Shown: positions 639 to 25,634 of the stretch, in pieces | Layout: each line of letters opens with the position of its first letter | How positions within the stretch are numbered: the first letter of the stretch is position 1 | Source of the DNA: Promethearchaeota archaeon | GTDB taxonomy: Archaea > Asgardarchaeota > Lokiarchaeia > Sigyniarchaeales > SOKP01 | Reading direction: 5' to 3' | DNA: 38,138 bases | Assembly: GCA_048940925.1 (NCBI GenBank) | Contig: JBHLOC010000044.1 | Coordinates: 1 to 38,138, forward strand | Program-made: the position numbers and the translations under genes | Notes under the pieces: model-generated | What the model was told of the DNA's origin: nothing | Database searches by the model: none | What the model saw: the letters and a program-made list of their open reading frames with translations, nothing else

Positions 639-3068
639 TTATAACTCATTGAAAACAGTTCGGGCGATGATATCATTCTGAAGACTTCTGCCAACTTCTA
701 TGAAACGGGCGGAATAACCTGTAACCTTAACTGACAAATCAGGATAATTTTCTGGATGAGCTTGGGCATCCCTTAATGTTTCTGAACTTATTGGATTAAT
801 TTGAAGCTCTCTTCCTCCTAATTCTAAATAAGCTTCAGCAATTGAAGTTAGTTTATCTACACCCTCATCTGTTTCTATTAAACTGGGATTGATTCTTATA
901 TTCATTGTTGCTCCATCGGTTAGAAGAGCATCTTTTGTTGCATAAGCTATTGAGCGGAGTGTCATAGTAAGCCCATTTTTCTCTGTTCCGTTCGCGGGAG
1001 ATATACCATTAGATACAGCTTCACCAGATAATCTTCCATCAGGAGTTGCACCTAACATTCTACCTTCAAGAATATTAAGTCCAGAAGATACAAGGCATGG
1101 GCGATATATACCGGCACCACCTCTAGCAGGATGTTTTCTCACAATATCACATAAAGTATTCGCCACCCATTTTGCTAGTTCGTCTACCTTTTCATCACCG
1201 TTACCATATTTGGGAGCCTTGTTTCTTAATAGTTCCTTAAGTTTATCAGCTCCCTTGAAATTATTATGGAGATGTGTAGCTAATTCTCCCATTGTCAATA
1301 ATTTTTCTTCGAATACTGCCCAGCGAATTGCTGCTAGTGAATTAGTTACAGTTGCTAATGCTTGACAACCTATCGGATTATTATTATAGTGTGCTCCATT
1401 TCGAGTTACATCTTTTCCACTCTCTAAACATCCCTCTATTGTAGATGAAAGTAATGGGGAAGGAAAATAATCTGCAAATGCTTTATCTTTTAGCTCTGCC
1501 TTTTTCACAACTAAGTCTACTCCAAAAGAAAGCTGATCTACAAAAGCCTGCTTCACATCTTCAAAAGTTTTAAAAGTACTTGGGTGAGGTGTTTTTGCAC
1601 CAAATTGACGGTTTTCTGCTACGAGAATTCGTCCTTCATTTAAAGCTAGATGTAAAACAATTGATAACCGAACACCATTGCCTGCCGTATAGGAAAAATC
1701 ATTACCAGTACCATGGGGTTCAACACACCCTACAAGTGAATAGTCACGGGCATCTTCTAATGAATATCCATCATTTTGAAGTTGGGGTACTAATATTTCA
1801 TCATTATGAATCCCCATTCCTGCGGTAAAGCGATATGTTTCAATTACTCTTTTTAAAAAATCTCGCGGCGTTTTGGAAGAGATTCGTATCGATAACGTAT
1901 TCAACAGGCTTTTTACATTTGCAATAGCCTCGAGAAACATATATGACACATCGTTCGTAGCATCATTTCCATCTTTATCTAATCCCCCAATAGTTATGTT
2001 ATTTTGTCCTGCGATAACAACAGAAGCAAGTTTAACTAAATACTCTTCAATGGCTTCTAAGGCTTCTTCATATGTAATACGTCCTTCTTTTAAATCTGCA
2101 ATATAATAAGGATAAAGATATTGATCTACTCGTCCTTGAGAAAATATATTTCCTTCACCATAGCTCATTTCCATAACGACATTGGTCATCCATACCGATT
2201 GCATTGCTTCCATGAAGGTTCTTGGTGGGAGGGCTGGTACTCGCCTTGCTCGTTCAGCAATGTCTAAAAGTTCCGCTTTTCTATGTTCTGATGCGTTTTC
2301 TGCCATTTTCATTGCTAGATCTGCGTAACGAATAGAATAATCACAGACAGCTCTTGCACAAACCTGAACTGCTTCATAAAAGATCTTGCGATTTTCGTAA
2401 TCTTCATCAATATTTTTAAGTTTCTCAAGTTCTTCTGCAGCTCTCTTTTCTATCCCCTTAAATCCCATTTTAAGAACTCGTCTATAACCCGGAATGGTAT
2501 GACCTTGCATTTCCGCATAAAATGGATTGATCCATCTCAAAGCTCTTTCTAAAAATCCCTTTTTCTCCTTAAATAAGCCTGCTTCTTTCCAGAGTTCTTC
2601 TTTTCGATCAGCTAATGTCTTTCCCTTCCATACGGGGATAATATCATTTTTCAGCTCGTTAAGCTCTTGTTCTGAAAAAGGGACATAACGCCTAAGGATT
2701 GGATTATGTCTACGGAAATATTCTTTAGTTTTTTCGTCTATTGAATCATCTAAGAGAAAATCATAAGTTCGAACATGTCTCCCAAGCTCTATTTCAAAAG
2801 GATCAGCTCTTATTTTACTGGATTTTACTCCTACAAGAAGCTCATCACTATCAATCCTTATAGGAAGGCAGCGTAAGAATTCTTCTAATGCTCTGGCTTT
2901 TTTCATATAGGGATGAGAATTTTCCATTTGTTTCCAAATTCTTGAATAGCATCGTGCTCGTTCGAGGTCATATTCGAAGGGTTGAGACAACATTTTGTCC
3001 CTAATTTTACGAACTCTCTCTGTAGGAATCCCTTGGAGAGGAGTCATTTTAACACTTTGAATTACCAT
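639..3068 (-). CDS. Glycyl radical enzyme (pyruvate formate-lyase-like/PFL2 family), substrate unknown
   Basis: 809 aa. Contains GRVDQYLYPYY, Cys loop VGCVEP, GATPDGR and C-terminal glycyl loop YPDLSVKVTGYSARF. Confidence 0.9.
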   Translation of the reverse strand: MVIQSVKMTPLQGIPTERVRKIRDKMLSQPFEYDLERARCYSRIWKQMENSHPYMKKARALEEFLRCLPIRIDSDELLVGVKSSKIRADPFEIELGRHVRTYDFLLDDSIDEKTKEYFRRHNPILRRYVPFSEQELNELKNDIIPVWKGKTLADRKEELWKEAGLFKEKKGFLERALRWINPFYAEMQGHTIPGYRRVLKMGFKGIEKRAAEELEKLKNIDEDYENRKIFYEAVQVCARAVCDYSIRYADLAMKMAENASEHRKAELLDIAERARRVPALPPRTFMEAMQSVWMTNVVMEMSYGEGNIFSQGRVDQYLYPYYIADLKEGRITYEEALEAIEEYLVKLASVVIAGQNNITIGGLDKDGNDATNDVSYMFLEAIANVKSLLNTLSIRISSKTPRDFLKRVIETYRFTAGMGIHNDEILVPQLQNDGYSLEDARDYSLVGCVEPHGTGNDFSYTAGNGVRLSIVLHLALNEGRILVAENRQFGAKTPHPSTFKTFEDVKQAFVDQLSFGVDLVVKKAELKDKAFADYFPSPLLSSTIEGCLESGKDVTRNGAHYNNNPIGCQALATVTNSLAAIRWAVFEEKLLTMGELATHLHNNFKGADKLKELLRNKAPKYGNGDEKVDELAKWVANTLCDIVRKHPARGGAGIYRPCLVSSGLNILEGRMLGATPDGRLSGEAVSNGISPANGTEKNGLTMTLRSIAYATKDALLTDGATMNIRINPSLIETDEGVDKLTSIAEAYLELGGRELQINPISSETLRDAQAHPENYPDLSVKVTGYSARFIEVGRSLQNDIIARTVFNEL

Positions 3069-3242
3069 AATTCAATAATTGTTTTTTTTATTAATAAAAT
3101 TTAGTTGTCTTATCAACACCAACTTGTTTTTTAAAATTTTTCAATACTTTCAAATCAAAATATCTATAAATTATTCAAAGAAAAATTTATTATAATAAGA
3201 AAATAGATAAATCTATTAAAATCTAAATGAGGTTTTTGAAAA

Positions 3243-4529
3243 ATGACACAATTAAGAGAAAAGCTTAAAATAACAAATAAAACTGTAAATGTTATAAATA
3301 AGTTTCTTTCTGATGAGAACAATGACTTAATTAATAATTTATTCGAAATTATTGAGAAGTATGGTGGAGTTGATGAAATTAATAGATATGCCAACGAAGC
3401 ACGTCAATTAGATAGTTTATTAGATAAATTAAAAAAGAAAAAGCCAGATTATGTCCAAGATATTGAATGGTTAATAGAGCAAAGAGAAAATAAAGCATTC
3501 ATAACTCTTTCTGATTATAAAAGGAAAATACTTGGAGATAAATTTTCAGAAATTACATTTAATAAAGATTTTGCTGTTACATTGGAACTATCAGCTTGCC
3601 AATATTTTCCATTTTTTATCGACATTGCGAAAGCTGCAATTAAAGATCAAGAGCTAATGCCCGCAAGAATTATTCGAGTAAGGAAAATGAAAGAACAAGA
3701 AGATGATGGCGACTTATTAGCCATGGCTGCTGCTATGCAAGTTATCGGAGCAACATATGTAGAGACATTAGATACGAAAGGGACAGCTCCGGGTCCAGAT
3801 GGTTTACCAGTGAATATTCATCTTGGGGGACCTGATACTATAACTGGTTATTTTGGGGGAGTAGGTCAACCGAATGATTATGCATTAAAATGGCTTGATG
3901 AATATTTGTATTACTACACAAATTATGGTATTAAACAAGTTCTAAATGTAAATCCTGGTACTGTACTTTTGGGGTATTTCATACATAAACTTGGAATAGA
4001 CAATGAATTCAAAATCTCTGTATATATGGGAAATGATAATCCTTACTCTTGTTTATGGACACTTTTAACAGCTAAATTATTTTCTAGAGAAGATGGTACA
4101 AGTCCATTAATTGGTTTTAATCTTGCTAACTCAGTTAATAATGAGACAATTGAACTTTCTGCGTATATTCGAAAGACTTTCGATTTTGAAGATGTTGTAA
4201 GATTAGAACATCATGTGATTGAGACGCAAAAAAGTATTGTACGCCAACCATACGATAGAAGAGTCGAATTAATAGATGTTGCTAAGAAAGTGAAAAACAT
4301 CAGTGCTAAACATGAGGGTGGTGATGTGGAATTAGATAGTAGCAGAGAACATCCTTCAGATATTTTAGATTATTTTAGAGATAAACAAGAAATTATCGAT
4401 TCTGGTCACTGGGAATATATGCGTAGAAATCACCTTGATAGATATATTGCTGTTAATACCACAGCTAAAATATTAATTAAGAATGGTATTGATATAATTG
4501 CTGCCCAAAATCTTCATAAATATGAATAA
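3243..4529 (+). CDS. Conserved-looking hypothetical protein, 428 aa, probably co-transcribed with the DapA-Fae fusion
   Basis: Long ORF with enzyme-like Gly/Pro-rich segments (ETLDTKGT, NIHLGGPDTITGYFGGVGQPN, SAKHEGG). The gap to the next gene is 21 nt. Family not recognised. Confidence 0.8.
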   Translation: MTQLREKLKITNKTVNVINKFLSDENNDLINNLFEIIEKYGGVDEINRYANEARQLDSLLDKLKKKKPDYVQDIEWLIEQRENKAFITLSDYKRKILGDKFSEITFNKDFAVTLELSACQYFPFFIDIAKAAIKDQELMPARIIRVRKMKEQEDDGDLLAMAAAMQVIGATYVETLDTKGTAPGPDGLPVNIHLGGPDTITGYFGGVGQPNDYALKWLDEYLYYYTNYGIKQVLNVNPGTVLLGYFIHKLGIDNEFKISVYMGNDNPYSCLWTLLTAKLFSREDGTSPLIGFNLANSVNNETIELSAYIRKTFDFEDVVRLEHHVIETQKSIVRQPYDRRVELIDVAKKVKNISAKHEGGDVELDSSREHPSDILDYFRDKQEIIDSGHWEYMRRNHLDRYIAVNTTAKILIKNGIDIIAAQNLHKYE

Positions 4530-4550
4530 ATAGAATTGAGTTGAGATAAT

Positions 4551-6038
4551 ATGGGAAAATTTGATTTTAGACCTACAGGGGTTATGCCTGCCATGGTAAC
4601 TCCTTTCAATAAGGATGAATCAATAAATGAAGATAATCTAAGAAATCTAGTAAATTTTCTTATAGAACAAGGAGTTACAGGACTTGTACCAGTAGGAACT
4701 ACTGGAGAATTTGTTAACATGACATTTGATGAACGATTAAAAGTTATTGAAATCGTTGTAGATGAAACAAATGGTAGGGTTCCTGTAATTGCTGGAACAG
4801 GAGAAACAGGTACAAAACTAGTAATTGATGTTACTAATGCAGCAGCAGATATAGGTGCTGATGCAGTGTTAATAGTAACACCTTATTATCTAAAACCTAA
4901 AGCAAAAGGGCTATATGATCATTATTTTACTATCGCAGAAAAAACCGACATTCCTATAGTTTTATATAATATTCCTGCTTGCACAGGTGTGGAATTGCTT
5001 TGGACTGTAGTGGAAGATCTTGTGGATATTGATAATATCGTTGCTATTAAAGATTCAAGTGGAGACTATAAATATTTTTCAGCACTTTTAGAAAAAGTTA
5101 GTGATAAAATCTCCGTGCTTATTGGATGGGATGAGAATGTATTAGGTGCTCTGGCTGGTGGAGCAGCAGGCTGTATCTTAGGATCAGCAAATGTTTTTCC
5201 TAAGATATGGTTGGAGATATATGACCACGTAAAAAATAATCGATTAGAAGAAGCACAAAAACTTCAAAAAAAAGTCCAAAAAATAGCAAGATTATTAATT
5301 AATTCAGGTGCTCTAGGCGTTAAATCCTGCTTAAATATGATGAATATTCCAGTTGGTAAAACTCGGCAACCCATTGTATTAGGAGATACTTTATCTTATG
5401 AAATAAAAGATGAATTAAGAGTAGAACTTGAAAAATTAGGTTTAATTAAAAAAACTGAAATCCAATTTGAATTTGGAGACAAACCACTCACAAGTCGTTT
5501 TTATGCTGTAGGTATTACTCCCAAGAAGATTTCTGATTTCGAATTGAAAGTAGGTGAATCTCTAGTAGGTAACCGTGCAGAACTCGCTCATATTGACCTC
5601 CTAATAGGTAAAAAAAATGGTCCTGTAGGTAATGCCTATGCGAATGCTTTAACTAATCCAGAAGAAGGACGTGAAGGACTACAAGTTATCCTTGAACCTA
5701 ATATGCAAGTCAAACCACCCACAATTATGATTCCTACTATTCGTCCAACTTCTCTTCGTCATGCTAGTCTTACTTATGGACCCGCACAAGCAGCAATTGC
5801 TAAGGCAGTTATGCAATGTGTTGAGGATGGAATTCTTCCAAAAGAGTTAGTCGATGATATCGTTATAATTGTAAATGTTTTTGTCCATCCGAGTTCTAGT
5901 GCAAGAAAAAGAATATTTATCAATAATTATAAAGCAACACGCAATGCGATCCGAAAAGCGATGGAAGGCTTACCAACTGTTGATGATGGAATAGAGAATG
6001 CAGAAAATGCACGACATCCCTTTAGAAATGATCCATAG
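4551..6038 (+). CDS. Fusion of a DapA/NAL-family class I aldolase (N-terminal) and formaldehyde-activating enzyme Fae (C-terminal)
   Basis: N-terminus has MVTPF, GTTGEF, YNIP and the Schiff-base Lys in AIKDSSG. From about 5545 the C-terminus has VGESLVG..ELAHIDLLIG, GPAQAAIAKAV, VFVH, NYKATRNAI and terminal HPF, all Fae signatures. Confidence 0.9.
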   Translation: MGKFDFRPTGVMPAMVTPFNKDESINEDNLRNLVNFLIEQGVTGLVPVGTTGEFVNMTFDERLKVIEIVVDETNGRVPVIAGTGETGTKLVIDVTNAAADIGADAVLIVTPYYLKPKAKGLYDHYFTIAEKTDIPIVLYNIPACTGVELLWTVVEDLVDIDNIVAIKDSSGDYKYFSALLEKVSDKISVLIGWDENVLGALAGGAAGCILGSANVFPKIWLEIYDHVKNNRLEEAQKLQKKVQKIARLLINSGALGVKSCLNMMNIPVGKTRQPIVLGDTLSYEIKDELRVELEKLGLIKKTEIQFEFGDKPLTSRFYAVGITPKKISDFELKVGESLVGNRAELAHIDLLIGKKNGPVGNAYANALTNPEEGREGLQVILEPNMQVKPPTIMIPTIRPTSLRHASLTYGPAQAAIAKAVMQCVEDGILPKELVDDIVIIVNVFVHPSSSARKRIFINNYKATRNAIRKAMEGLPTVDDGIENAENARHPFRNDP

Positions 6039-6168: not shown

Positions 6169-6729
6169 ATGGATGTAATAGAAGTAATCCATACAAGAAG
6201 ATCATTTAGATCATTAGCCCCTGTTGAAATTACAGAAGAACTTATTAAGGATTTAGCAGAATGTGCAAGTTTAGCACCATCATGCAAAAACTCACAACCG
6301 TGGAGATTTGTCTTTGTGTTTGAAAAAAATCAGCTTCAAAAATTATTTACAACCTTAAGGGCTCCAAATGATAAATGGGTTGTAAATGCTTCTATGATAA
6401 TAGTCGTTTTCAGCAATGTTAAGTATGATTGCATTATCAATGAACGATTATATTATTTATTTGATACAGGATTAGCTACAGCTTTCATTATGTTACGAGC
6501 TACAGAATTAGGTCTAGTCGCTCACCCAATAGCCGGTTTTGAAGAGATACTGTTAAAAAAAATTCTTGAAATTCCAAATGATATGAGGGTAATTACTCTT
6601 ATAATTATTGGGAAAAAATCGTTAAAGATTGATCATAATTTAACAGATTTGATGAAAGCTACTGAATCTAACGCACCTCCTCGAAAAAAATTTAGAGAAT
6701 TTGCTTATATAAATAAATATAATCCTTGA
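6169..6729 (+). CDS. Nitroreductase family flavoprotein
   Basis: RRSFR, APSCKNSQPWRF, DTG and ATELGL motifs. Confidence 0.9.
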   Translation: MDVIEVIHTRRSFRSLAPVEITEELIKDLAECASLAPSCKNSQPWRFVFVFEKNQLQKLFTTLRAPNDKWVVNASMIIVVFSNVKYDCIINERLYYLFDTGLATAFIMLRATELGLVAHPIAGFEEILLKKILEIPNDMRVITLIIIGKKSLKIDHNLTDLMKATESNAPPRKKFREFAYINKYNP

Positions 6730-6869
6730 ACTAGTAATTGTAAGATTTTTTTTCATAAATGCAATTTATTTTTAACTCCTTTTGTATTAAATGTTCAATA
6801 TGAACGAGTTATATTATTAAATAAATAGGGTCTAATCATACTAAAAATAAAAGAAATAAAAAAAAGCTT

Positions 6870-7844
6870 TTATTTAGAAATACTTCCTAATTTCTGGATA
6901 ACTTCTTCTGCTTCTTTCATTATCCTATCTAATAATTCTTTCACTGTAGGAATATCTTTTACTAATCCTACACCTTGACCGCAGCTAACCATACCTGCAT
7001 CAGTATCTCCTTCTTTATACATTTTCAACGCATTTTGACCTGAAGCAGCTTGTACAATTTCTTGTAAGGAAGCTTTTTTTGATTCTAATTCAATTATCTT
7101 CTCTGCAGCTTTATTTCTCCATACTCTATGAGTATTACGAATAGAACGCATAACTAAAGAAGTATCGGTCTCGCTAGCTTGAACAAATGCTTGTTTTAAA
7201 TTATCATGGATAGGGCATTCTTTTGTAGCCATCATTCTTGTTCCCATAATTACACCAGCAGCACCAAGCGCTAATATAGCTGCGACACCTCGACCATCTG
7301 TGACACCCCCTCCTGCTATAACGGGAATATCTAAAGCATCAACCACACTTGGAGTCATCACAAGAGTTCCTATATCTAAAATTCCAGTCGCACCTCCATT
7401 TTCATAACCTACTACTGTTATCATGTTAGCTCCCAAAGAAGCTCCCTTTAGTGCATATCTAACACCTGCACATTTATGAATCCATAGTGCACCACCTTCT
7501 TTGAATTTAGGAACTAGATGTTCTGGTGCCTTATGACCGCTTGTTTCGATAATTTTTACACCTTCATCTAAGGTAGCCACAACATAATCTTCCAACTTAT
7601 CTTGTGGCATTAGAGCCGGAAATAAATTTATATTTACTGCAAAAGGTTGATTGGTTAAATCTTGTGTTTTTCTGATCGCTAATCGTAATTCTTCAGGAGT
7701 TTTATAGTTCGCGCTTGCTAACACAGCACAGGCACCAGCGTTACTACATGATGCTACAAATTCTGGTGTAGTAATATTTGCCATGGTCCCTACAATTATA
7801 GGATATTTACATCCTAACATTTCAGTTACTTTGGTCTTAATCAA
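6870..7844 (-). CDS. Nitronate monooxygenase / FabK-like FMN-dependent oxidoreductase
   Basis: YPII..MA, GYENGG, PVIAGGGVTDGRG and GVIMGTRM motifs. TTG start follows GAAGTGA. Confidence 0.85.
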   Translation of the reverse strand: MIKTKVTEMLGCKYPIIVGTMANITTPEFVASCSNAGACAVLASANYKTPEELRLAIRKTQDLTNQPFAVNINLFPALMPQDKLEDYVVATLDEGVKIIETSGHKAPEHLVPKFKEGGALWIHKCAGVRYALKGASLGANMITVVGYENGGATGILDIGTLVMTPSVVDALDIPVIAGGGVTDGRGVAAILALGAAGVIMGTRMMATKECPIHDNLKQAFVQASETDTSLVMRSIRNTHRVWRNKAAEKIIELESKKASLQEIVQAASGQNALKMYKEGDTDAGMVSCGQGVGLVKDIPTVKELLDRIMKEAEEVIQKLGSISK

Positions 7845-7938
7845 AATTATTCACTTCAATATTTTCAATTATAAACTAATATTTTTGCATTTCATTTATA
7901 TTTCATCAAAAAAGAAATTCTTATGATTAATTTGTTTA

Positions 7939-8412
7939 TTAATTTTTAATATTTTGATTTTGATTTTTAGATTTTAATAGTTTATGTTTCAAATCATCTG
8001 AAATATTTACTTTTTGTTTCTTTTCATAATTATACCAAACAATATGAGCTTCTCCCTCCGCTGCAATCCTATTTAATTTCTCACTTATAAGAATATGTTT
8101 AATAATGATTTTAGAGCCTTCTATATTTGTTATTTTTGCACCAACATAAATCGTGTCTGGGTAAATTAACGGTGCTTTATAATAACAGCTTTGATAAGAT
8201 AATATTGGACCTATGCGAGTTTTGGTAGGTTCTTCATAGATATTCAGAAAACTAAATAATGCTATCCTAGAACTTTCAAAAAATCGATAATATATTGTAT
8301 TATTCACATGTCCTCTAGCATCCATATCACCCCATCGAACTGACATCTTTTCTATTACTGTAAAATCCTTTAAAATCTCATTCATCTTATTCTTTTTCAT
8401 AGATATATTCAT
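7939..8412 (-). CDS. Acyl-CoA thioesterase (4HBT/YbgC hot-dog fold)
   Basis: VRWGDMDARGHVNNTIYYRFFESSR motif. Confidence 0.9.
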   Translation of the reverse strand: MNISMKKNKMNEILKDFTVIEKMSVRWGDMDARGHVNNTIYYRFFESSRIALFSFLNIYEEPTKTRIGPILSYQSCYYKAPLIYPDTIYVGAKITNIEGSKIIIKHILISEKLNRIAAEGEAHIVWYNYEKKQKVNISDDLKHKLLKSKNQNQNIKN

Positions 8413-8565
8413 TTTATAATTTATTAATCAAATTCCTTTTATATCTTAATTTTTTAAATTCTTTTTCTCTATATTTAATACTTCATAAAGCTAATATTGA
8501 TAATTTTAAGAATATATCTAAAATTAATAATAAATTCAAATCCAAAATAGTTTAAATCAATTGAG

Positions 8566-9063
8566 ATGAAGTATAAAATGACAGAACAAGCATTAGAATT
8601 AAAAGTTGGAGCACAAGCACCTCATTTTTGCCTTCCAGATAAAGATAATAAAGAAGTATGTTTAGAGGATTTTAAGAATAAATATATTGTTTTATATTTT
8701 TATCCTAAAGATAATACACCTGGTTGTACAACTGAAGCAATTGGTTTTACAGGAATTTTTTCTGATTTGCAAAAATTAGACGCATTAGTCGTAGGAATCA
8801 GTCCTGATAGCCCTGAATCTCATGCAAAATTTATTGAAAAGAAAAACTTGGAAGTTATACTCCTAAGCGATATTGATAATAAAATAATCAAGGAGTATGG
8901 CAAGTGGGGTAAAAAGAAATTTCGTGGAAAGGAATATATGGGTGTTATCCGAAGTACATTCTTAATAGATCCTGATGGAAAGATAGTACATATCTGGCCA
9001 AAAGTTAGTGTAAAGGGACACGCTGAAGATGTTAAACGAGTATTAGAAGAGTTAAAATCTTAA
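8566..9063 (+). CDS. bcp: Bcp/PrxQ-type peroxiredoxin
   Basis: VLYFYPKDNTPGCTTEA, GISPDS and RSTFLIDPDGKI motifs. The start may be the ATG at 8578. Confidence 0.9.
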   Translation: MKYKMTEQALELKVGAQAPHFCLPDKDNKEVCLEDFKNKYIVLYFYPKDNTPGCTTEAIGFTGIFSDLQKLDALVVGISPDSPESHAKFIEKKNLEVILLSDIDNKIIKEYGKWGKKKFRGKEYMGVIRSTFLIDPDGKIVHIWPKVSVKGHAEDVKRVLEELKS

Positions 9064-9116
9064 AATAATTTTTTCTTTATTATTGATACTTTTTTTAATT
9101 TGAAGAGGAAAATTTA

Positions 9117-9686
9117 ATGGATGTTAAAGAAACTATTGAAAAAAGAAGAGCATTCAGATCATTAGATAAAGTTGACATTTCAGATGAATTGGTAAAGGAT
9201 TTTGGACGAGTAGCCCAAATTACTCCTTCTTGTGCGAATAGACAACCCTGGCGATTTGTTTTTGTATATGAAGAGGAACAATTAAAAAAATTGTTTACAA
9301 CCTTATCAGAAGGGAATAAATGGGTTGAGAAAGCTTCTATGATTATAGCCGTGTTTAGTAAACCAGAAAATGATTGCATGATTGGAGAACGCCTTTATTA
9401 CTTATTTGATACAGGAATGGCGGTGGCATTCATTGTTTTAAGAGCTACGGAACTTGGACTAGTTGCTCATCCAATAGCGGGATTTAATGAAGAAAAAGCT
9501 AAAAATGTCCTTAATATACCAGACAAGATGAGATTAATAACACTAATAATAGTTGGAAAACATTCAAAGGAGGTAAATCCTGTTCTTTCAGAAGCAATGA
9601 AATTAGGAGAAAAGCAAAGACCTCCAAGAATTCCATTGGAAGAATTTATTTATATTAATGATTATAATACAAAATTAAATGAGTAA
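9117..9686 (+). CDS. Nitroreductase family flavoprotein (paralogue of 6169..6729)
   Basis: RRAFRSL, TPSCANRQPWRF and LRATELGLVAHPIAGF motifs. Confidence 0.9.
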   Translation: MDVKETIEKRRAFRSLDKVDISDELVKDFGRVAQITPSCANRQPWRFVFVYEEEQLKKLFTTLSEGNKWVEKASMIIAVFSKPENDCMIGERLYYLFDTGMAVAFIVLRATELGLVAHPIAGFNEEKAKNVLNIPDKMRLITLIIVGKHSKEVNPVLSEAMKLGEKQRPPRIPLEEFIYINDYNTKLNE

Positions 9687-9717
9687 TATAATAAAAATTA
9701 AGAAAAGGGATAAATAA

Positions 9718-10506
9718 ATGTTTTTAGTTATACTTTTCTCTGGTTTAGCACTATTAATTTTTATGCATATTGCTTTTTTAGTCGGTTTAGCTAAAAAAAA
9801 TAATGCAATAGTCGATAGTTTTTATGGTTTAGGATTTATTGTAGTAGTATGGACAGCTTTTTTACTTATGGGCTCTTATACTCCAATGCAGATAATTACA
9901 ACCTCATTAGTTACACTCTGGGGATTTAGATTATTCTTTTATGTTACCATTAGAAATTGGGGAAAACCAGAAGATTATAGATATCAAGCTATGAGGAAAA
10001 GATGGGGAGAAAAAGTAATACCTAAAAGTTATACCCAGATTTATTTGTTTCAAGGTCTAATTATCTTTCTAGTAGTTTTTCCCGCATTATTCATAAATGT
10101 GAGTGAAAATGTTGCTCTAAATTGGTTTTTTATAATTGGTCTCGTCATTTGGGCAATTGGTTTTTACTTTGAAACAATTGGAGATTATCAACTTTATAAA
10201 TTCAAGAAAAACCCTGATAATAAAGGAAAAATTTTAGATCAAGGATTATGGAAATATACACAGCATCCTAATTATTTTGGCGAAGTGACAATGTGGTGGG
10301 GAATTTTTATTATTGCTCTTTTCGTTCCATTCGGATATATAACTGTTTTTGGGCCTATATTGATTACATTCATGATTATTAAAGTCTCAGGAATTCGACT
10401 GCTTGATAAACATTTTGAAAAAGATGATAAATATGCTGATTACAAAAGAAGAACAAGTGTTTTTTTCCCTTGGTTTCCAAAAAAGACTAAATATTTAGAT
10501 GAATGA
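9718..10506 (+). CDS. DUF1295 / steroid 5-alpha-reductase-like membrane protein
   Basis: Multiple transmembrane segments plus EDYRY, ETIGDYQL, GLWKYTQHPNYFGE..MWWG and Y..YKRRTSVFFPW. Confidence 0.9.
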   Translation: MFLVILFSGLALLIFMHIAFLVGLAKKNNAIVDSFYGLGFIVVVWTAFLLMGSYTPMQIITTSLVTLWGFRLFFYVTIRNWGKPEDYRYQAMRKRWGEKVIPKSYTQIYLFQGLIIFLVVFPALFINVSENVALNWFFIIGLVIWAIGFYFETIGDYQLYKFKKNPDNKGKILDQGLWKYTQHPNYFGEVTMWWGIFIIALFVPFGYITVFGPILITFMIIKVSGIRLLDKHFEKDDKYADYKRRTSVFFPWFPKKTKYLDE

Positions 10507-10550
10507 AATAAATTTTTAATTAAAATTAATTAATCCTACTTTTTTTAAGA

Positions 10551-12182
10551 TTGATAGCTAACGATTTTGATAGTAATTTACAACAATATTTTTTCAAATA
10601 TTTTTCAGATATTGAGACTGTAGATTGGAAAAATTGGCTAAAAGTTAATTCTCGAGAAGAATATCAAGAATTAGCTTTAAAATTGTCTGGTTTAAAAGAA
10701 TTAGAAAATTTATATGGCAAGTTACAGCATGAAAAGACTAATTCAAGAGACTTCTCAATTCAGATTAATTCATTCATAAAAAATTATGAAGGAAATGATC
10801 CTTTAGTATTTTGCCATACATCAGGATCTACAAATAGTAATATAGCTGGGTTAAAATGGTTCTTCTTTTCAAAACCGTTAATTCAGCGACTATGGGCTCC
10901 AGGTATGCGAGCAATTTTTGAATCCAGCGGATTAACTACTAATAATTCTGCTATTATCTTTGTTCCTTCCAGAATGAGTACAGATGGCTTAAATCAAATA
11001 GCTGAAAGAAGATATATTTCTTTATATTCCTCTGAATTCTCTCAGAGAATCATGCTTTCTTTAATTAAACCTAAAAATTATCTTTTTTATGAATATAAAA
11101 ATTCAAGAAATATTGAAATAATTTCAAAAATATTAGATATGGATAATATATCTATTATCTCAGCCCCAGCACTCACAGTTTTAAACTGGGCTGATATAAA
11201 TAAATTTAAATATGGATTACAGAAATCCATCAGTTCAAATTCCAACAAAGAGGAATTAATGTCAAATACTACTTTTAAATTGATTAAAAGCAAAGGTCTT
11301 GATGCTGCAGCTAAAGCTATCCAAACAAGGCTTTCTAATAAACTATCTAATTCTACTCTTATATTTAGCATAACTTCATTATCGAAATCAAAATGGTCAT
11401 TATTAGCTAAATTTATGAACTGGAAAAAAGGAAAAGAAAAATTTACTAATCTTTATGTAGGTTCTGAAATTGGTCCTTTTGCCTCTAGTCTATCCTATGA
11501 TATCGCCCGTTCAAATCTAATGCATGTATTTCCCTTAACAATCCCCGTTATTGAATATAAGGGGAAAAGAAATTTAATCACTCAAACTACTGATAAAAGA
11601 GGCAATCTTTTGATATCTAGATTTGATAATGCCAAACCATTGCTTAATATTGATACAGGAGACATTATTTCAGTACAAATTAATGATAAAATCCCTTTAA
11701 TTAAAGGAGAAATATTAAGAAATAACTTTCAACTAAAATATCCTTTAAAAATATCTAAGAAAGTTAGAAAACCTTCTATATATGAAATTTTTGCAGGAGA
11801 TTTTTTTTCATTTAAAGAATTTGAGTTAGTCGATCCAAAGAATTTGTTAAGATGCTTGAAAAGTAAATGTGGGTTACAAAATGATTCTTTATTACTAATA
11901 AAATCGGAAAGTGAAAATAGAACTTGGAAGTTGATACTCCCCGCTAATATAAATACAATATGTAAGACAAAAGAAGATTATTTAACTCAATTTTTTAATT
12001 GTCCTCATGAAAAGAGTTTTCAACAAGCTATTAAAGAAAATAATATAGAATTAGAGTTAATAGATGACAGTCCTATTGATTTTTTAGCTTCCAGAGAAAA
12101 AATAGTTTCAAAAGTGCGACGAGGACAAATTCCTAAAGGAATTTTGAAAAAATGGCCAATTTATATTGTTGTTCCATCTTAA
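10551..12182 (+). CDS. Divergent ANL-superfamily adenylating enzyme (GH3/PaaK-like)
   Basis: P-loop-like CHTSGST, NLYVGSEIG (YxxxE) and IDTGDII motifs. TTG start. Confidence 0.6.
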   Translation: MIANDFDSNLQQYFFKYFSDIETVDWKNWLKVNSREEYQELALKLSGLKELENLYGKLQHEKTNSRDFSIQINSFIKNYEGNDPLVFCHTSGSTNSNIAGLKWFFFSKPLIQRLWAPGMRAIFESSGLTTNNSAIIFVPSRMSTDGLNQIAERRYISLYSSEFSQRIMLSLIKPKNYLFYEYKNSRNIEIISKILDMDNISIISAPALTVLNWADINKFKYGLQKSISSNSNKEELMSNTTFKLIKSKGLDAAAKAIQTRLSNKLSNSTLIFSITSLSKSKWSLLAKFMNWKKGKEKFTNLYVGSEIGPFASSLSYDIARSNLMHVFPLTIPVIEYKGKRNLITQTTDKRGNLLISRFDNAKPLLNIDTGDIISVQINDKIPLIKGEILRNNFQLKYPLKISKKVRKPSIYEIFAGDFFSFKEFELVDPKNLLRCLKSKCGLQNDSLLLIKSESENRTWKLILPANINTICKTKEDYLTQFFNCPHEKSFQQAIKENNIELELIDDSPIDFLASREKIVSKVRRGQIPKGILKKWPIYIVVPS

Positions 12183-12622
12183 ATTTTATTGAAATAGAAA
12201 TTATACTTATTTAAGTGAATAAACCAGAAATCCCTTTAATGTAATATTTAATTAAGATTTCTATATTGGAACCAACTCATTCATCCTTTTTATTTTTAAT
12301 CAATAAGTAGATTACAATTCTAATATAAACTTCAAATAATTTTGTTTTATAAGGCTCAATAAAAGATTGATTGATTTTGGATTATTTTAATAAAAGTTAA
12401 TATACTATAAACCATTTTTTGATATTCTATTTAACTCATTATTAATATATGATTGAATTAAACCAATATACAAGAATCTGAAATAAAAAATTATATTTTA
12501 TTAATTAATGATGCTAAATCCATATAATTAACAAAAAAGCTTATTTAATGCTTAATAGAACATAAAAGACAATTTGAAATTCTTTCTTATTTGTTAAATT
12601 AGTAACTTAGGGTGTTAAATAA

Positions 12623-14680
12623 ATGAATTCATTAAAAAAAGAAAAAAGCCCATATTTATTACAACATGCTGAAAATCCAGTAGAGTGGTTTCCCTGGGGA
12701 CAAAAAGCATTTAATAAAGCTAAAAATGAAAATAAACCGATCTTTTTGTCAATTGGTTATTCTACTTGCCATTGGTGTCATGTTATGGCCCATGAATCTT
12801 TCGAAGATCTTGAAGTAGCAGACCTAATGAATGAAGTATTTATTTCGATCAAAGTTGATAGAGAGGAACGTCCTGACATTGATAAAACTTATATGACAGT
12901 ATGTCAAATGATGACAGGTTCAGGAGGGTGGCCACTTACTATAATTATGACCCCAGAGAAAAAGCCATTTTTAGCGGGGACATATTTTCCAAAACACTCA
13001 AGATTCGGACGAATAGGGCTTATTCAATTAATTAAACAAGTAAGAGATCTATGGAATAATGAACGAGACAAAGTAATTAATTCTGCTGAACAAATCACAT
13101 TTAGTCTTCAGAATGTTGACCAAGAATCCCCAGGAGACCCATTTAATGAGAAAACTCTTAGAAAATCATATCAAGGACTATTAAGGCAATATGATGATGT
13201 CAATGGTGGTTTTGGTAATCGTCCAAAATTCCCAACTCCTCATAATTTAGTATTTTTACTTAGATATTGGAAACGAACGAGAGATGAAAAAGCTTTAGAA
13301 ATGGTTGAAAAAACCCTTCAAGCAATGAGGAAAGGTGGTATTTATGATCATATTGGATTAGGATTTCATAGATATTCAACTGATTCAAACTGGCTTGTTC
13401 CTCATTTTGAGAAAATGATTTATGACCAAGCATTAATAGCAATTGCCTATATTGAAGCTTATCAAGCAACTAAAAATATCAAATACAAAAAGATTGCTGA
13501 AGAAATTTTTACTTATGTTCTAAGGGACATGACTTCAACTGAGGGTGGCTTTTTTTCAGCTGAAGATGCTGATAGTGAAGGTGAAGAAGGAAAATTTTAT
13601 GTTTGGTCTGAAGAAGAATTAGAACAAATACTTAATAAAGAAGATTTCGATTTAGTCGTTAAATTCTTTAATATAGAAACCAATGGAAATTATCTGGAAG
13701 AAGCTACAGGGAAAAACACAGGTAAAAACATATTGCATCTTAAAGAATATCCAACAGAAGAAATATCAGATGATTTAGAAAACATAAGGAAAAAAATTTT
13801 TAAAATAAGGGAACAAAGAATATATCCACACAAAGATGACAAAATATTAACTGATTGGAATGGATTAATGATCGCTGCTTTAGCTAAAGCTGGAAGTGTC
13901 TTCAATAATACAGAATATTTAAAAGCAGCTAAAAAATCAGCTAGTTTTATATTAGAAAGGCTAATAAAATCAGATGGTAAACTATTGCACCGTTATCGTG
14001 AAGGTATTTCGGAAATCGAGGGATTCATAACAGATTATACGTTTCTTATTTGGGGATTAATTGAATTGTATGAGGCAACTTTTGATATCTATTATTTAAA
14101 AACAGCGTTGGATTTACATAATATACAGTTAGATCTTTTCTGGGATAATAATATTGGTGGATTCTACTTTACTGCTAATGATGGTGAGGAATTATTATAC
14201 AGACAAAAAGAGATCTATGATGGTGCTCTCCCCTCAGGAAATTCTGTTGCTATGTTAAACTTGCTTCGATTAAGTTATATTACAGGGAATCATCATTTAG
14301 AAGAAAAAGCGGACATCTTAAGTAGAATTTTTGCCGACAAGATAAAGGGCATGCCATTTGCTTATACTTATTTTATGATAGCTGTTGATTTTGCGATTGG
14401 ACCGACATACTCATTAGTGGTTGCTGGAGATACAGATTCAGAAGATACAAATGATTTAATACGTACTGTCTCAAATGAATATATACCCAATAAAGTTATA
14501 ATACTTAGAAAAACCGAACAAAAAGAACCAGATATTGATACTTACTCAAACTTTGTAGAATTTTTTATTAAACTTGAAAATCAAGCAACTGGTTATGTGT
14601 GCATAAATAAGACTTGTAAACCACCTACAGCCGATAAACAAAAAATTTTAACCTATTTAAATGCAGAATGGAAAAAATAA
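12623..14680 (+). CDS. Thioredoxin-domain protein YyaL/SSP411 (DUF255 + six-hairpin glycosidase-like)
   Basis: [44 protein letters not shown] and [13 protein letters not shown] motifs. Confidence 0.92.
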
Positions 14681-14693
14681 ATTAAGATTAGAC

Positions 14694-15170
14694 TTACCAA
14701 CTTTTTTTAAATTTTTTATTAGGTCCCAATTCTTTTATTATATTTGTAGCCTTTTTAACCAAAGTTGCAAAACGCTCTCCTTCGGCAGCAGAAGCCCACA
14801 TAAAATTAACTCTCCCGGGTTCAATCCCAAAGAATTCCAGAAGCTCTTTCAATATTGCAAAACGTCTTCGAGCTACTAGATTTCCACTAATATAGTGGCA
14901 GTCTCCAGGATGACATCCTGAGACAAGAACGCCATCCCATCCATCCGTCAGACTTTTTATAATAAAATAGGGATTAACTCTTCCAGAACAGGGAACTCTG
15001 ACAATTCTTATATTCGGTGGATATTGGATTCTACTAACTCCAGCTAAATCTGCTCCGGCATATGAACACCAATTACATAAGAAAGCAATGATTTTTGGTT
15101 CCCATTTTTCAGAAATTTCTTTTTGTTCTGTTTGGGTTAATAGTTTACTTATTTTTACAACCTCCCGCAT
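14694..15170 (-). CDS. mvhD: Hydrogenase iron-sulfur subunit MvhD
   Basis: FLCNWCSYAGADLAG, RVPCSGR, GCHPGDCHY and WASAAEG motifs. The start is uncertain (ATG overlapping hdrA, or a downstream ATA behind GGAGGT). Confidence 0.93.
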   Translation of the reverse strand: MREVVKISKLLTQTEQKEISEKWEPKIIAFLCNWCSYAGADLAGVSRIQYPPNIRIVRVPCSGRVNPYFIIKSLTDGWDGVLVSGCHPGDCHYISGNLVARRRFAILKELLEFFGIEPGRVNFMWASAAEGERFATLVKKATNIIKELGPNKKFKKSW

Positions 15171-17173
15171 ATGATAGAATAAATTTGCTCAGATGTAAAT
15201 CCCTTGATATCTATAGCGGAACATCTACAATTACCAGAACAAGCGCCGCAACCCTTGCATAAAGCTTCGTTAATTTGAGCTACTGTTCCAAATCTTCGAT
15301 CCTCAATAAGTTCAATTGCTCCATAAGCACAATTTTCAACACACATACCACACCCGATACATCTTTCAGGATTAACAACGCCAAAAAAGGGTTCTACTTC
15401 TACTTCTCCTTGTGACATTAATGCTGCTGCACCTGAAGCCGCTCCTTTTGCTTGTGATACTGAATCTGGAATATCTTTTGGTCCCTGGGCAACACCCGCG
15501 ATGAAAATACCATCTGTCAAAGTGTCTACAGGTCTTAATTTTGGATGTGCTTCTAAAAAGAATCCATCTGCTGACTTTTGAATCCTTAATAAGGAAGTAA
15601 TTGTATCAGCATCTGCTCGTGGTTCTAAACCACATGATAATACAAATAAATCGACCTTTAATTCAATAGGTTGTTGAAGTAAAGTATCTTCAGATCTAAT
15701 AATAATATTGTGATCTTTATCTTCACTAACTTCTGCAATTCTCCCTCTTACATAATTAATCCCATAATTTCGACCAGCAGATTCGTAAAATTCTTCATAT
15801 CCTTTTCCAAAAGCTCGAATATCCATGTAAAAAATATATACATCTGCATCAGGATGTTTTTCTTTATATTGTCTTGCTTGTTTGGTCGCATACATACAAC
15901 ATACTCTTGAACAATATTGATTTCCTCCTTCTCTAAAATTCCTGCTTCCTACACATTGAAGGAATGCAATACTATGTGGTGCCTTAAGATCTGAGGGTCT
16001 TATCGGTTTTCCTAAGACTGGACCAAAAGAGCTTAATAATCGTTCCATTTGAAGCCCCGTGATAACATTTGGATATCTTCCATACCCATATTGTTTTAGT
16101 TCAGTAGGATCGTATAAATCCCATCCTGTTGCGACTATAATTGTTCCTACTTTAATTTTAAGATATTCTGGTTCATCATCAAAATTTATAGCTTCAGGCT
16201 CGCATACATCAGTTCTTGCACAAATTCCACACTTAATACAATTATCCATATCGATTGTATATTGTCCTGGAATCGCTTGAGGGAAGGGAATATAAATTGC
16301 TTTTCGTGAGGCTAAGCCAAGTTCAAATTCATTTCCTACAACAACAGGACAATAATCAACGCATATGCCACAACCAGTGCATTTTTCTTGATCCACATAA
16401 TGTGGCTTTTTCAATATGGTGACTTCAAAGTTACCTATGTATCCTGATACATCTACTACCTCTGAATATGTTAAAAGTTCTATATTTTTTTCACGTGAGA
16501 TTTCTGACATTTTAGGTGTGAGAATACATGAGCTACAATCCATTGTGGGGAAAGTCTTGTCTAGTTGAGCCATATGACCACCTATTGTAGGAGTTTTTTC
16601 TACTAAATATACCTTATAACCCTCAGTTGCAAGATCTAACGCTGCATTCATTCCTGCTATACCCGCTCCTATAATTAAACACGAAGGTTCTACTTTTACC
16701 TTTTGTACTTCTAATGGTATTAATTGTCTTGATTTCGCGACAGCCATTCTAATATGATCTTTTGCGGTTTCAAATGCACCTTCTGGTTCTCTCATGTGTA
16801 CCCATGTGGAATGCTCTCTAATATTAGCCATCTCAAATAAAAATTGATTCAATCCAGCTTCTTTACATGTAATTCTAAAAGTTGGTTCATGCATTCTTGG
16901 AGAACATGCAGCAACTATTACTCTATTCACTAATCCTGCTTCAATATCTTCTTTAATCATTTTTTGTCCTACATCAGAACACATAAATTTGTATTCTCTA
17001 GCTATTTCAACATTAGGAAGCGTTTTCGCATATTCTACTAAATCTGGAACTGACACTACTCCGCCAATATTTATCCCGCAATGACATACATATACCCCAA
17101 TTCTAGGTCTTTCATTACCCGTAACTATAATTTCCTTTTTGGTTTCTTGAATTTCTTTTTTAGCTTCTGTCAT
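15155..17173 (-). CDS. hdrA: Heterodisulfide reductase subunit A
   Basis: GVYVCHCGINI, ACSPRMHE, IIGAGIAG, DKTFPTMDCSSCI, QCVGSR..YCSRVCC, GPKDIPD and several CxxCxxC ferredoxin motifs. Confidence 0.96.
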   Translation of the reverse strand: MTEAKKEIQETKKEIIVTGNERPRIGVYVCHCGINIGGVVSVPDLVEYAKTLPNVEIAREYKFMCSDVGQKMIKEDIEAGLVNRVIVAACSPRMHEPTFRITCKEAGLNQFLFEMANIREHSTWVHMREPEGAFETAKDHIRMAVAKSRQLIPLEVQKVKVEPSCLIIGAGIAGMNAALDLATEGYKVYLVEKTPTIGGHMAQLDKTFPTMDCSSCILTPKMSEISREKNIELLTYSEVVDVSGYIGNFEVTILKKPHYVDQEKCTGCGICVDYCPVVVGNEFELGLASRKAIYIPFPQAIPGQYTIDMDNCIKCGICARTDVCEPEAINFDDEPEYLKIKVGTIIVATGWDLYDPTELKQYGYGRYPNVITGLQMERLLSSFGPVLGKPIRPSDLKAPHSIAFLQCVGSRNFREGGNQYCSRVCCMYATKQARQYKEKHPDADVYIFYMDIRAFGKGYEEFYESAGRNYGINYVRGRIAEVSEDKDHNIIIRSEDTLLQQPIELKVDLFVLSCGLEPRADADTITSLLRIQKSADGFFLEAHPKLRPVDTLTDGIFIAGVAQGPKDIPDSVSQAKGAASGAAALMSQGEVEVEPFFGVVNPERCIGCGMCVENCAYGAIELIEDRRFGTVAQINEALCKGCGACSGNCRCSAIDIKGFTSEQIYSIICGRL

Positions 17174-17183
17174 TGGTTTACAC

Positions 17184-18149: not shown

Positions 18150-18738
18150 TTTCCTCCTCTGCTTTTGCTCTCTCTTTTTTTACTTTTTCAGCATGATCTA
18201 ATAATTCTCTAAATCCAACAGCTTTCATCAAACTCTGGCATTCTTTTAAAGCCTCTGGGAAAGAGTGAACTGTTGGTGGTAAAGGAGGCAATCCGTAGGA
18301 TTCTCTTAAGGCTCTCCATTGTTTATTATTTTCACCAGTTGCGGGTACACCATGTCCAGTTGCATAAAAGATATTATTAGCTAATCCAAAATGATTATCT
18401 AAGATAAAGCCTTCTTCAACTGCGATATTTCTAAGTTTAATAATCATATCTGTAACAGGAATATTTCTTGGACATCTTTCATAGCAATAATAACAAGTTG
18501 AACATAACCAAATATCAATATCTTGCAAAACTGATTCATCCCCAGTTAATGCACGACGGATTGCAGACCGTGTTCTATATGCTGTGCGACGTCCACTTGG
18601 GCAACTACCAGTACAAGTTCCGCAGTTGATACATGCCCTGATTTTTTCTAAACCTGCATCAACGAATTTTTGAACAATCCGAGAGCTTGTAGATTTGTAG
18701 ACTTTTCTTTTAATATATTTTTCTACATTATCACTCAT
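18133..18738 (-). CDS. hdrC: Heterodisulfide reductase subunit C
   Basis: CINCGTCTGSCPSGRRT and WLCSTCYYCYERCPR motifs. Overlaps the hdrB start. Confidence 0.95.
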   Translation of the reverse strand: MSDNVEKYIKRKVYKSTSSRIVQKFVDAGLEKIRACINCGTCTGSCPSGRRTAYRTRSAIRRALTGDESVLQDIDIWLCSTCYYCYERCPRNIPVTDMIIKLRNIAVEEGFILDNHFGLANNIFYATGHGVPATGENNKQWRALRESYGLPPLPPTVHSFPEALKECQSLMKAVGFRELLDHAEKVKKERAKAEEENEKNE

Positions 18739-25617: not shown

Positions 25618-25634
25618 AATAATAAATTCTTATT

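Follow-up and report, generated by a model that had tools for sequence, protein, structure and literature searches.

The window examined here is the whole of a 38-kb contig (C35; 38,138 nucleotides) of a Promethearchaeota archaeon, whose genome comprises 4.8 Mb with about 30% G+C. In a single open reading frame (ORF) it carries an aldolase of the dihydrodipicolinate synthase (DHDPS, DapA; 4-hydroxy-tetrahydrodipicolinate synthase) family fused to a formaldehyde-activating enzyme (Fae), and a second gene, c1, lies directly upstream. The sequence-only reading had described an intact class I aldolase barrel and a full Fae domain with its catalytic histidine, and both descriptions hold: the motifs GTTGE(F) (residues 49-54), YNIP (139-142), and IKDSSG (166-171, with Lys167) are all present in the barrel, and AHIDL (346-350, with His347) is present in the Fae domain. 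The N-terminal half scored 248.6 bits against the NCBIfam dapA equivalog (TIGR00674; cut-off, 206.15 bits) and 192.6 bits against NanA, so that its overall sequence is nearer to DapA. The C-terminal half reached 188.6 bits against one_C_fae (TIGR03126; cut-off, 118.05 bits) and 187.6 bits against the Pfam model for Fae (PF08714; cut-off, 27 bits). The profile for the known Fae-Hps fusion (NF009833; cut-off, 274 bits) gave 153.5 bits and covered the Fae part alone, the partner domain being DHDPS.

The same two domains, at the same length, were found in more than 120 protein clusters with 83 to 94% identity from NCBI, JGI, ENA, and Logan assemblies, and more than 100 genomes of the phylum have full-length copies. 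Thus, the architecture is shared by independent assemblies and many genomes, and the fusion is no assembly artefact; its high conservation points to strong selection. Nearly all of the named clusters are called "4-hydroxy-tetrahydrodipicolinate synthase" and come from Promethearchaeota or other Asgard metagenome-assembled genomes (MAGs); because the protein scores above the dapA equivalog cut-off, databases name it DapA. Full-text searches, including Asgard-directed ones, found no paper on a fusion of Fae with a DHDPS/DapA aldolase. The fusion is a new domain combination built from known parts, and we regard it as a genuine and ancient bifunctional protein, predicted to be an enzyme, that is widely conserved and everywhere mis-annotated.

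Features of the c1-fusion locus and of c8, the protein found beside the fusion at other loci
Feature	Coordinates	Strand	Remarks
AT-rich intergenic region with TATA-like stretch (~3184-3200) and GAGG ribosome-binding site	3069..3242	+	Read directly; probable operon promoter
c1, 428-aa protein, TIM-barrel-like, N-terminal helical region	3243..4529	+	Directly upstream of fusion; ATG at 3243
21-nt spacer, c1 stop to fusion start	4530..4550	+	Genes probably co-transcribed
Aldolase-Fae fusion gene (495 aa)	4551..6038	+	Single ORF, no stops
DHDPS/NAL-family class I pyruvate aldolase barrel, residues 8-293	4572..5429	+	Pfam PF00701, E 6.2e-78
YNIPACTG: catalytic Tyr139; Cys144 at DHDPS Arg138 position	4965..4988	+	Alignment with E. 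coli enzymes and own DapA
Lys167 codon, Schiff-base lysine (E. coli DapA Lys161)	5049..5051	+	Conserved in 24/24 fusion proteins aligned
GWDE replacing DHDPS GDD	5124..5135	+	Matches GYDE (NanA), GYDD (YagE/YjhH)
Interdomain linker, ~40 residues (294-333)	5430..5549	+	Length kept across family
Fae domain, residues 334-491	5550..6023	+	Pfam PF08714, E 2e-55
His347 codon, equivalent to Fae His22	5589..5591	+	Alignment to 1y5y; residue comparison
Thr396 codon at Fae Lys71 position	5736..5738	+	One conserved Fae position changed throughout fusion clade
T-rich stretch directly after stop codon	6039..6075	+	Read directly; archaeal terminator-like (putative)
c8, ~320 aa, TIM-barrel-like	L015, L016, L019, L020, L021 (e.g. 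L016 9026-10015)	- (L016)	Neighbour of fusion where c1 is missing

To characterize the aldolase half, we built an alignment of 24 fusion proteins from diverse members of the phylum, the genome's own DapA, and DapA (b2478), NanA (b3225), YagE (b0268), and YjhH (b4298) of Escherichia coli, taken from the annotated K-12 record. The closest solved structure was the DHDPS of Methanocaldococcus jannaschii (2yxg; E 3e-56), the nearest solved structures were all DHDPS, and identity to the genome's own DapA was 35%. The Schiff-base lysine, the catalytic tyrosine, GTTGE, and PYY were retained across the 24 aligned fusions, and since the Thr-Thr pair of GTTGE, Tyr139, and Lys167 are kept, the pyruvate Schiff-base chemistry is predicted to be intact. 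In DHDPS enzymology, Arg138 of the YNVPSRTG motif is the ligand of the aspartate-semialdehyde carboxylate. None of the 24 fusion proteins has this arginine, the two residues before TG being AC, QV, QC, VC, and similar pairs, and the GDD motif (Gly186-Asp187-Asp188) is changed to G(W/H/F/Y)DE throughout the family. The corresponding lyase motifs are YNIPALSG and GYDE in NanA, and YNFPxLTG, GYDD, and GxGGEF in YagE and YjhH. The loss of Arg138 and GDD, together with the gain of motifs of the NanA/YagE/YjhH type, makes the N-terminal half look like a descendant of archaeal DapA that was converted to a NanA/YagE-type pyruvate lyase for a 4-hydroxy-2-oxo acid.

Compared with DapA (EC 4.3.3.7; TIGR00674; E. 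coli b2478; M. jannaschii 2yxg), the fusion thus belongs to the same fold and the closest sequence family and has the Schiff-base lysine, the tyrosine, GTTGE, and PYY in common with it, whereas it lacks Arg138 and GDD, carries a Fae domain, is a paralogue of a real dapA, and has no linkage to dapB or lysA. With NanA, YagE, and YjhH it shares YNxP(A/D)L(S/T)G-type motifs without the arginine, GY(D)(E/D), G(S/T)xGE(F/A), and the same predicted type of retro-aldol reaction; however, it is nearer to DapA overall, and those enzymes lack Fae and act with N-acetylmannosamine or glycolaldehyde as their aldehydes. The genome's own dapA, on contig C50, encodes both YNVPSRTG and GDD and is followed directly by dapB, with a lysA-type decarboxylase gene flanking them, so that the canonical dapA-dapB-lysA cluster lies on a separate contig from the fusion. 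The fusion was never beside dapB in the loci examined. The earlier suggestion that this enzyme does not serve lysine synthesis is therefore favored by several lines of evidence, among them the loss of Arg138 and GDD in every aligned member and the presence of a separate dapA-dapB-lysA cluster. Two further DHDPS-family sequences were seen in the same genome. Contig C40 (L006 328-2412, minus strand) encodes a second fusion protein of this family, of 694 amino acids, in which a weak DHDPS barrel (79 bits) is followed by a phosphotransferase domain resembling APH/fructosamine kinases, and a DHDPS pseudogene fragment interrupted by five stop codons lies on contig C18.

The Fae half aligned without gaps to Fae of Methylobacterium extorquens (1y5y; E 2e-32) and was 42% identical to the Fae part of the genome's own canonical Fae-Hps, a fusion of Fae and OMPdecase encoded on contig C26 (L001 1468-2781). 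We compared the residues of 50 nonfused Fae representatives with those of 18 fusions of the full type. His22 was kept in all 18 and Gln88 (Gln413 in the fusion) in 16 of them; we take these residues to be the proposed acid catalyst and part of the tetrahydromethanopterin (H4MPT) site, respectively. Nonfused Fae has 38 positions with a conservation of at least 80%, and the Fae half keeps 36 of them. The sole consistent exception is Lys71, which is lysine in 90% of the nonfused proteins and threonine in 17 of the 18 full-type fusions; the replacement of the usual lysine motif by PTIR, noticed earlier from the sequence, is thus confirmed (IPTIRPT, residues 394-400) and extends to the family. On the basis of these residues, the C-terminal half is most likely an H4MPT-dependent formaldehyde-activating domain that looks functional.

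A search with the Fae half over 1.84 billion representatives yielded 967 Fae-family clusters, and the best 150 of these include 17 that are fused to DapA. The phylogeny of the Fae domain that had been proposed as a check was built: in the maximum-likelihood tree, the fused Fae domains lie on one side of a supported branch (SH-aLRT, 98), apart from 49 nonfused domains, and the lone "nonfused" sequence within the fused clade is a 157-aa fragment. This separation fits a single ancient fusion event. In its logic, the closest known system is the Fae-Hps of methanogens, in which a homologous Fae, with His22 and Gln88 likewise kept, is fused to a C-C lyase able to release formaldehyde, also in H4MPT-containing archaea. 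The fusion differs from Fae-Hps in that its partner is a class I pyruvate aldolase of the DHDPS family, not a hexulose-phosphate synthase of the OMP-decarboxylase family. Additionally, the domain order is reversed (Fae is C-terminal), Lys71 is threonine, the Fae domain belongs to a separate clade, and a C3/C4 keto-acid substrate is predicted. Another Fae architecture, as yet undescribed, may be represented by eight Fae representatives of 259 to 319 amino acids (P0247, P0249, P0260, P0261, P0264, P0267, P0282, and P0309), which carry N-terminal extensions of 100 to 150 residues that do not match the DapA domain.

To survey the distribution of the fusion, 250 genomes were sampled evenly from the phylum (Asgard archaea) and grouped into families labeled f1, f8, f13, and so on. 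Full-length fusions, with 42 to 95% identity, were found in at least 10 families, and Mch, used as a marker of the H4MPT pathway, was present in all of these families (54 of 54 genomes in f1, 57 of 59 in f8, 18 of 19 in f13, 3 of 3 in f14, 5 of 5 in f28, and others). Nine families lack Mch (70 genomes; among them f6, f23, and f15, with Mch in 0 of 26, 0 of 16, and 0 of 10 genomes), and none of them has the fusion. A few fusion-positive genomes had no Mch match, and these are 74 to 90% complete. Since related genomes are not independent, we treat this co-occurrence as a pattern and not as a statistic. The source genome encodes both Mch and Mtd, so that methylene-H4MPT can, by prediction, be processed. 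Some cluster members are labeled Korarchaeota/Thermoproteota, Bathyarchaeia, or Anaerolineae, and those on short contigs may be binning errors.

Several lineages carry a tandem pair of fusions (L012-L014, L019, L020, L025, and L120-L122; for example, L013 7706-9106 and 9097-10587). The first copy, which we call type B (429 to 484 amino acids), has lost AHIDL with His22 and the C-terminal tail of Fae, and the second copy has kept His22 and lost the LEPN loop and the GPAQ motif. Speculatively, the two paralogues are possibly complementary subunits, or half-sites, of a hetero-oligomer. At one locus, a GHMP kinase, of the family that includes homoserine kinase and archaeal pantoate kinase, is encoded beside the tandem fusions.

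The conserved partner of the fusion is c1. In f2, f28, and the window's own family, it immediately precedes the fusion, and its conservation equals that of the fusion, both being 75 to 94% identical within Lokiarchaeia-type genomes. Genomes of the window's own family have either both genes or neither, and most of the 15 with neither are at least 95% complete; this joint pattern marks them as an accessory two-gene cassette. Beyond the cassette, c1 occurs without the fusion in 19 of 26 genomes of f6 and 15 of 16 of f23, copies with 62 to 67% identity were found in MAGs of Chloroflexota, Bathyarchaeia, and Thermoplasmatota, and the cultured Lokiarchaeum ossiferum also has one. More than 8,000 database matches to the family were scored, and relatives are encoded on at least 569 genome stretches.

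The c1 protein has many invariant His, Glu, and Asp residues and one invariant Cys. It had no match in Pfam (E ≤ 10) or NCBIfam, and the best ESM Atlas feature match (0.83, to YkzU) was below the level of trust. In the AlphaFold2 model, which is of low confidence (pLDDT, 61; pTM, 0.65), strands and helices alternate. Foldseek found no match in the PDB below E 1e-3, and the Atlas structure search gave TM scores of at most 0.45. Fold comparison gave Z scores of at most 9.5, with a tie among the TIM barrels of HydG/ThiH, DUF849/Kce, the pyruvate carboxylase CT domain, the folate domain of MetH, and MTHFR. From these models it is safe to say that c1 is predicted to be TIM-barrel-like, and nothing more specific.

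The neighborhoods of c1, counted at 88 loci, fall into several types. The fusion is a neighbor at 43 of these loci. A class I/II aminotransferase gene is found at 21 loci, 14 of which also have a homoserine dehydrogenase and 12 a gene for an aldehyde:ferredoxin oxidoreductase of the AOR family; the loci that combine c1 with all three belong to Heimdall-type Asgards, the homoserine dehydrogenase passes its equivalog cut-off (425 versus 373 bits), and some loci of the aminotransferase type also encode a PatB-type C-S lyase. At seven Chloroflexota loci, an equivalog-scoring PanB is encoded beside c1; five of them have FolD and formate-tetrahydrofolate (THF) ligase on the opposite strand, and CoA-transferase subunits are encoded downstream at loci of this type. 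At two further loci (L033 6778-7824, plus strand, and L100), a divergent, Fae-less DHDPS-like aldolase of 348 amino acids, with the motifs GSTGDG, YQLPQIT, and KDSSG (MKDSSG) and again without the arginine, is encoded directly upstream of c1; one of these loci belongs to genus g9, in which no Mch was found, and the other has the same gene order. A gene of the UDP-glucose/GDP-mannose dehydrogenase family is divergent from c1 at 29 loci, with UxaC downstream at two, and both neighbors are limited to close relatives.

In the PanB reaction, a 2-oxo acid takes up the C1 unit of methylene-THF and becomes a 4-hydroxy-2-oxo acid; the PanB product is the methyl-bearing analogue of 4-hydroxy-2-oxobutanoate (HOB), whose transamination partner among the amino acids is homoserine. 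The simplest common denominator of the c1 neighborhoods would therefore be a 4-hydroxy-2-oxo acid as the substrate of c1, supplied or removed by one of three modules: the aldolase-Fae fusion in organisms with H4MPT, an enzyme of the PanB type in those with THF, and, in Asgards without the H4MPT pathway, transamination and oxidation via homoserine and aspartate semialdehyde. The context of c1 provides an argument separate from that of domain content, and the two meet at HOB, the substrate that had been proposed from the window.

Taking these observations together, we propose that the fusion catalyzes the reversible reaction HOB + H4MPT ↔ pyruvate + methylene-H4MPT + H2O, or the same reaction with a closely related 4-hydroxy-2-oxo acid, and we give this reading, which is drawn from sequence and context, a probability of roughly 0.5. 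We infer HOB as the substrate, formaldehyde as the aldehyde, channeling, and the direction of flux. Lys167 would form a Schiff base with the 2-oxo group of HOB, and retro-aldol cleavage would then give formaldehyde and the pyruvate enamine. The formaldehyde would pass directly from one active site to the other and stay out of the cytoplasm, and the Fae domain, with His347 as the acid catalyst, would condense it with N5/N10 of H4MPT to yield methylene-H4MPT. Mtd, Mch, and the Fwd pathway would oxidize this product or, in reverse, supply it. The c1 protein probably makes or uses the same 4-hydroxy-2-oxo acid and would work with the fusion. In the catabolic direction, the C1 unit would enter the H4MPT pathway, and in the anabolic direction, a homoserine precursor would be made from pyruvate and a C1 unit; the analogy to serine hydroxymethyltransferase and PanB suggests that the net reaction runs easily both ways, and its direction is thus not readable from the sequence. 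DHDPS-family enzymes form tight dimers and Fae forms a pentamer with its active sites between subunits. Since the PYY tyrosine, which reaches across the dimer interface, is conserved in the fusion, a D5 decamer would be a reasonable, if speculative, guess.

The net chemistry proposed here is that of PanB (PF02548; 3-methyl-2-oxobutanoate hydroxymethyltransferase), in which a methylene-pterin and a 2-oxo acid are converted reversibly to a 4-hydroxy-2-oxo acid and the pterin, and PanB holds the place beside c1 in Chloroflexota that the fusion holds in Asgard archaea. However, the fold and mechanism of PanB are unrelated to those of the fusion: it is a metal-dependent, single-domain enzyme that uses THF and 2-oxoisovalerate and forms no Schiff base. 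We rejected the idea that the fusion replaces PanB, as the genome has a full PanB elsewhere (352 bits). A second point of comparison is RhmA (YfaU), which serves as the "HOB aldolase" of the synthetic homoserine cycle, in which pyruvate and formaldehyde are converted reversibly to HOB and HOB is transaminated to homoserine (PMC8879981). In E. coli, HOB is a non-native metabolite and the HOB aldolase is a promiscuous activity of RhmA, as set out in that review of formaldehyde metabolism (PMC8879981). RhmA differs from the fusion, which is predicted to be of class I, in being a class II aldolase whose activity on HOB is promiscuous and is not coupled to a C1 carrier.

The sequence-only reading had already linked a pyruvate-formaldehyde adduct to methylene-H4MPT. 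This idea gained from the retention of the Fae residues, from the restriction of the fusion to families with Mch, and from the PanB and homoserine contexts of c1; the part of it that relied on the fwdA and hdr genes in the window was not borne out, as that context is not conserved, and the chemistry itself stays an inference, with room left by GxDE for a larger substrate. Several observations weigh against the proposed reaction. The conserved Asp-Glu pair of GxDE binds sugar hydroxyls in NanA, which may indicate an aldehyde larger than formaldehyde, and the change of Lys71 to threonine may alter the handling of H4MPT or formaldehyde. The context evidence runs through c1, a protein without an assigned family. 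Many of the 88 c1 loci come from related genomes, and the counts therefore overstate the independent support. The PanB beside c1 scores as a normal PanB and may be a housekeeping gene for pantothenate. The cassette is missing from about 30% of the near-complete genomes of the window's own family and is thus accessory. In f8, c1 is not adjacent to the fusion, and in f13, f14, f10, f22, and f19 its place is taken by a different protein, c8. Like c1, c8 had no match in Pfam or NCBIfam; its Atlas features matched, at 0.98, clusters in which 17 to 23% of the members have Peptidase_U32, and its fold is that of a generic TIM barrel (Z of about 14, with many ties). No relationship between c1 and c8 was apparent in BLASTP (E 1.6), hhalign (E 0.013; probability, 3%), or cross-HMM searches, which were negative.

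The strongest competitor, which we consider rather unlikely, is that the substrate of the aldolase half is a related 4-hydroxy-2-oxo acid or a larger acid of the 2-keto-3-deoxy sugar type. Cleavage would then liberate glycolaldehyde, glyceraldehyde, glyoxylate, acetaldehyde, or some other aldehyde in place of formaldehyde, and the Fae domain would either join this aldehyde to a pterin or act mainly as an oligomerization scaffold. The combination of YNIPxxTG, GxDE, and GTTGEF is indeed the pattern of the sugar-acid lyases NanA, YagE, and YjhH, and the threonine that the fusion clade has fixed in place of Lys71 could make the Fae site larger or otherwise change it. The type B paralogues, which are maintained without His22, suggest a noncatalytic role for some Fae domains, but a scaffold is hard to reconcile with the catalytic histidine and nearly all conserved positions in the full-type Fae domains. 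Similarly, the UDP-glucose/GDP-mannose dehydrogenase and UxaC genes near c1 would suit a sugar acid, although they were found only in close relatives. The strict limit to lineages with Mch points to H4MPT chemistry, and the only known chemistry of Fae is with formaldehyde; both count against this alternative.

A role in the biosynthesis of a cofactor or specialized metabolite, rather than in central C1/C4 flux, appears to us distinctly improbable. In one variant, the aldolase would extend or shorten a side chain on a pterin intermediate kept bound by the Fae-like domain, and in another, c1 and the fusion would together make a pantoate-like or homoserine-like block. The very high conservation of c1 and the fusion in Lokiarchaeia-type genomes is typical of core biosynthetic enzymes and speaks for such a role; the absence of the cassette from about 30% of the near-complete genomes of the window's own family speaks against it. 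The adjacency of c1 to PanB in Chloroflexota and the GHMP kinase beside one pair of tandem fusions would also fit, but the genome has its own PanB elsewhere, and we know of no cofactor pathway that needs aldolase-Fae chemistry. Least probable by far is that the protein is a genuine DHDPS of the lysine/diaminopimelate pathway with an accessory Fae domain. The dapA equivalog score and the DHDPS identity of the nearest solved structures speak for it; however, they are opposed by the replacement of Arg138 in 24 of 24 aligned proteins, the change of GDD to GxDE, the canonical dapA-dapB-lysA cluster on another contig, and the lack of any dapB neighbor at the loci examined.

No known prokaryotes are closer relatives of eukaryotes than the Asgard archaea, whose carbon and energy metabolism has been reconstructed almost wholly from annotation. 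Because a gene that is conserved in most H4MPT-bearing Asgard lineages is named DapA in databases, current reconstructions miss its role. If the HOB reaction is correct, the fusion would be a new natural junction of C1 carriers with central C3/C4 metabolism, and it would represent a naturally occurring HOB aldolase of class I that deals with formaldehyde in the same polypeptide, which is of direct interest for synthetic methylotrophy. We tentatively extend this to a broader proposal, which is doubtful: Asgard archaea, and some other archaea that use H4MPT, might possess a natural dedicated route that joins the C1 unit of the Wood-Ljungdahl/H4MPT pathway to pyruvate and leads through HOB to homoserine, by way of a channeling aldolase-Fae enzyme, possibly a decamer of Fae pentamers and aldolase dimers, and the new TIM-barrel family c1. 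If so, the route would be a natural counterpart of the corresponding step of the synthetic homoserine cycle, and the same module, run in reverse, would let these fermenters oxidize the C4 carbon of homoserine-type compounds through H4MPT. The c1 family itself is large and highly conserved, with at least 62% identity between Asgard and Chloroflexota copies, and its varied neighborhoods make its function testable.

The remaining genes of the window include those that had been cited as evidence for a link to the H4MPT pathway, fwdA and hdrABC-mvhD. The latter are present, as ORFs for MvhD, an HdrA-like protein, an HdrB-like (CCG) protein, and a 2x[4Fe-4S] HdrC-like protein at positions 14694-18738. 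In contrast, fwdA is represented by a C-terminal fragment only (37158-38138, minus strand; 363 bits versus a cut-off of 393), which is truncated where the contig stops. One TGA lies in frame within it and could reflect selenocysteine, an assembly error, or a pseudogene. Some 1.2 kb away there is another short FwdA-like fragment (35761-35994, minus strand), with a leucine carboxyl methyltransferase-like gene between the two. Neither fwdA nor the hdr genes are conserved beside the fusion at other loci, and we rejected them as functional neighbors. The same holds for the gene divergent from c1 (639-3068, minus strand), which was rejected as a conserved partner because it is missing from all other loci examined. 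It encodes an 809-aa glycyl-radical enzyme of the PFL2/dehydratase subfamily that scored below every specific equivalog cut-off (HypD, sulfopropanediol dehydratase, and CutC), and no glycyl-radical activase was seen among the annotated ORFs of the window.

Downstream of the fusion, the window contains redox and stress genes (6169-14680) that accompany the cassette in several relatives: two nitroreductases, an AhpC/peroxiredoxin, a DUF255 thioredoxin-domain protein, an NMO/FMN oxidoreductase, and a thioesterase. No Pfam match was obtained for the ORF at 10551-12182 (543 amino acids). Farther along, on the minus strand (23488-30734), a 709-aa protein with SIR2-like and TPR domains adjoins a 1,699-aa multi-PAS histidine kinase.

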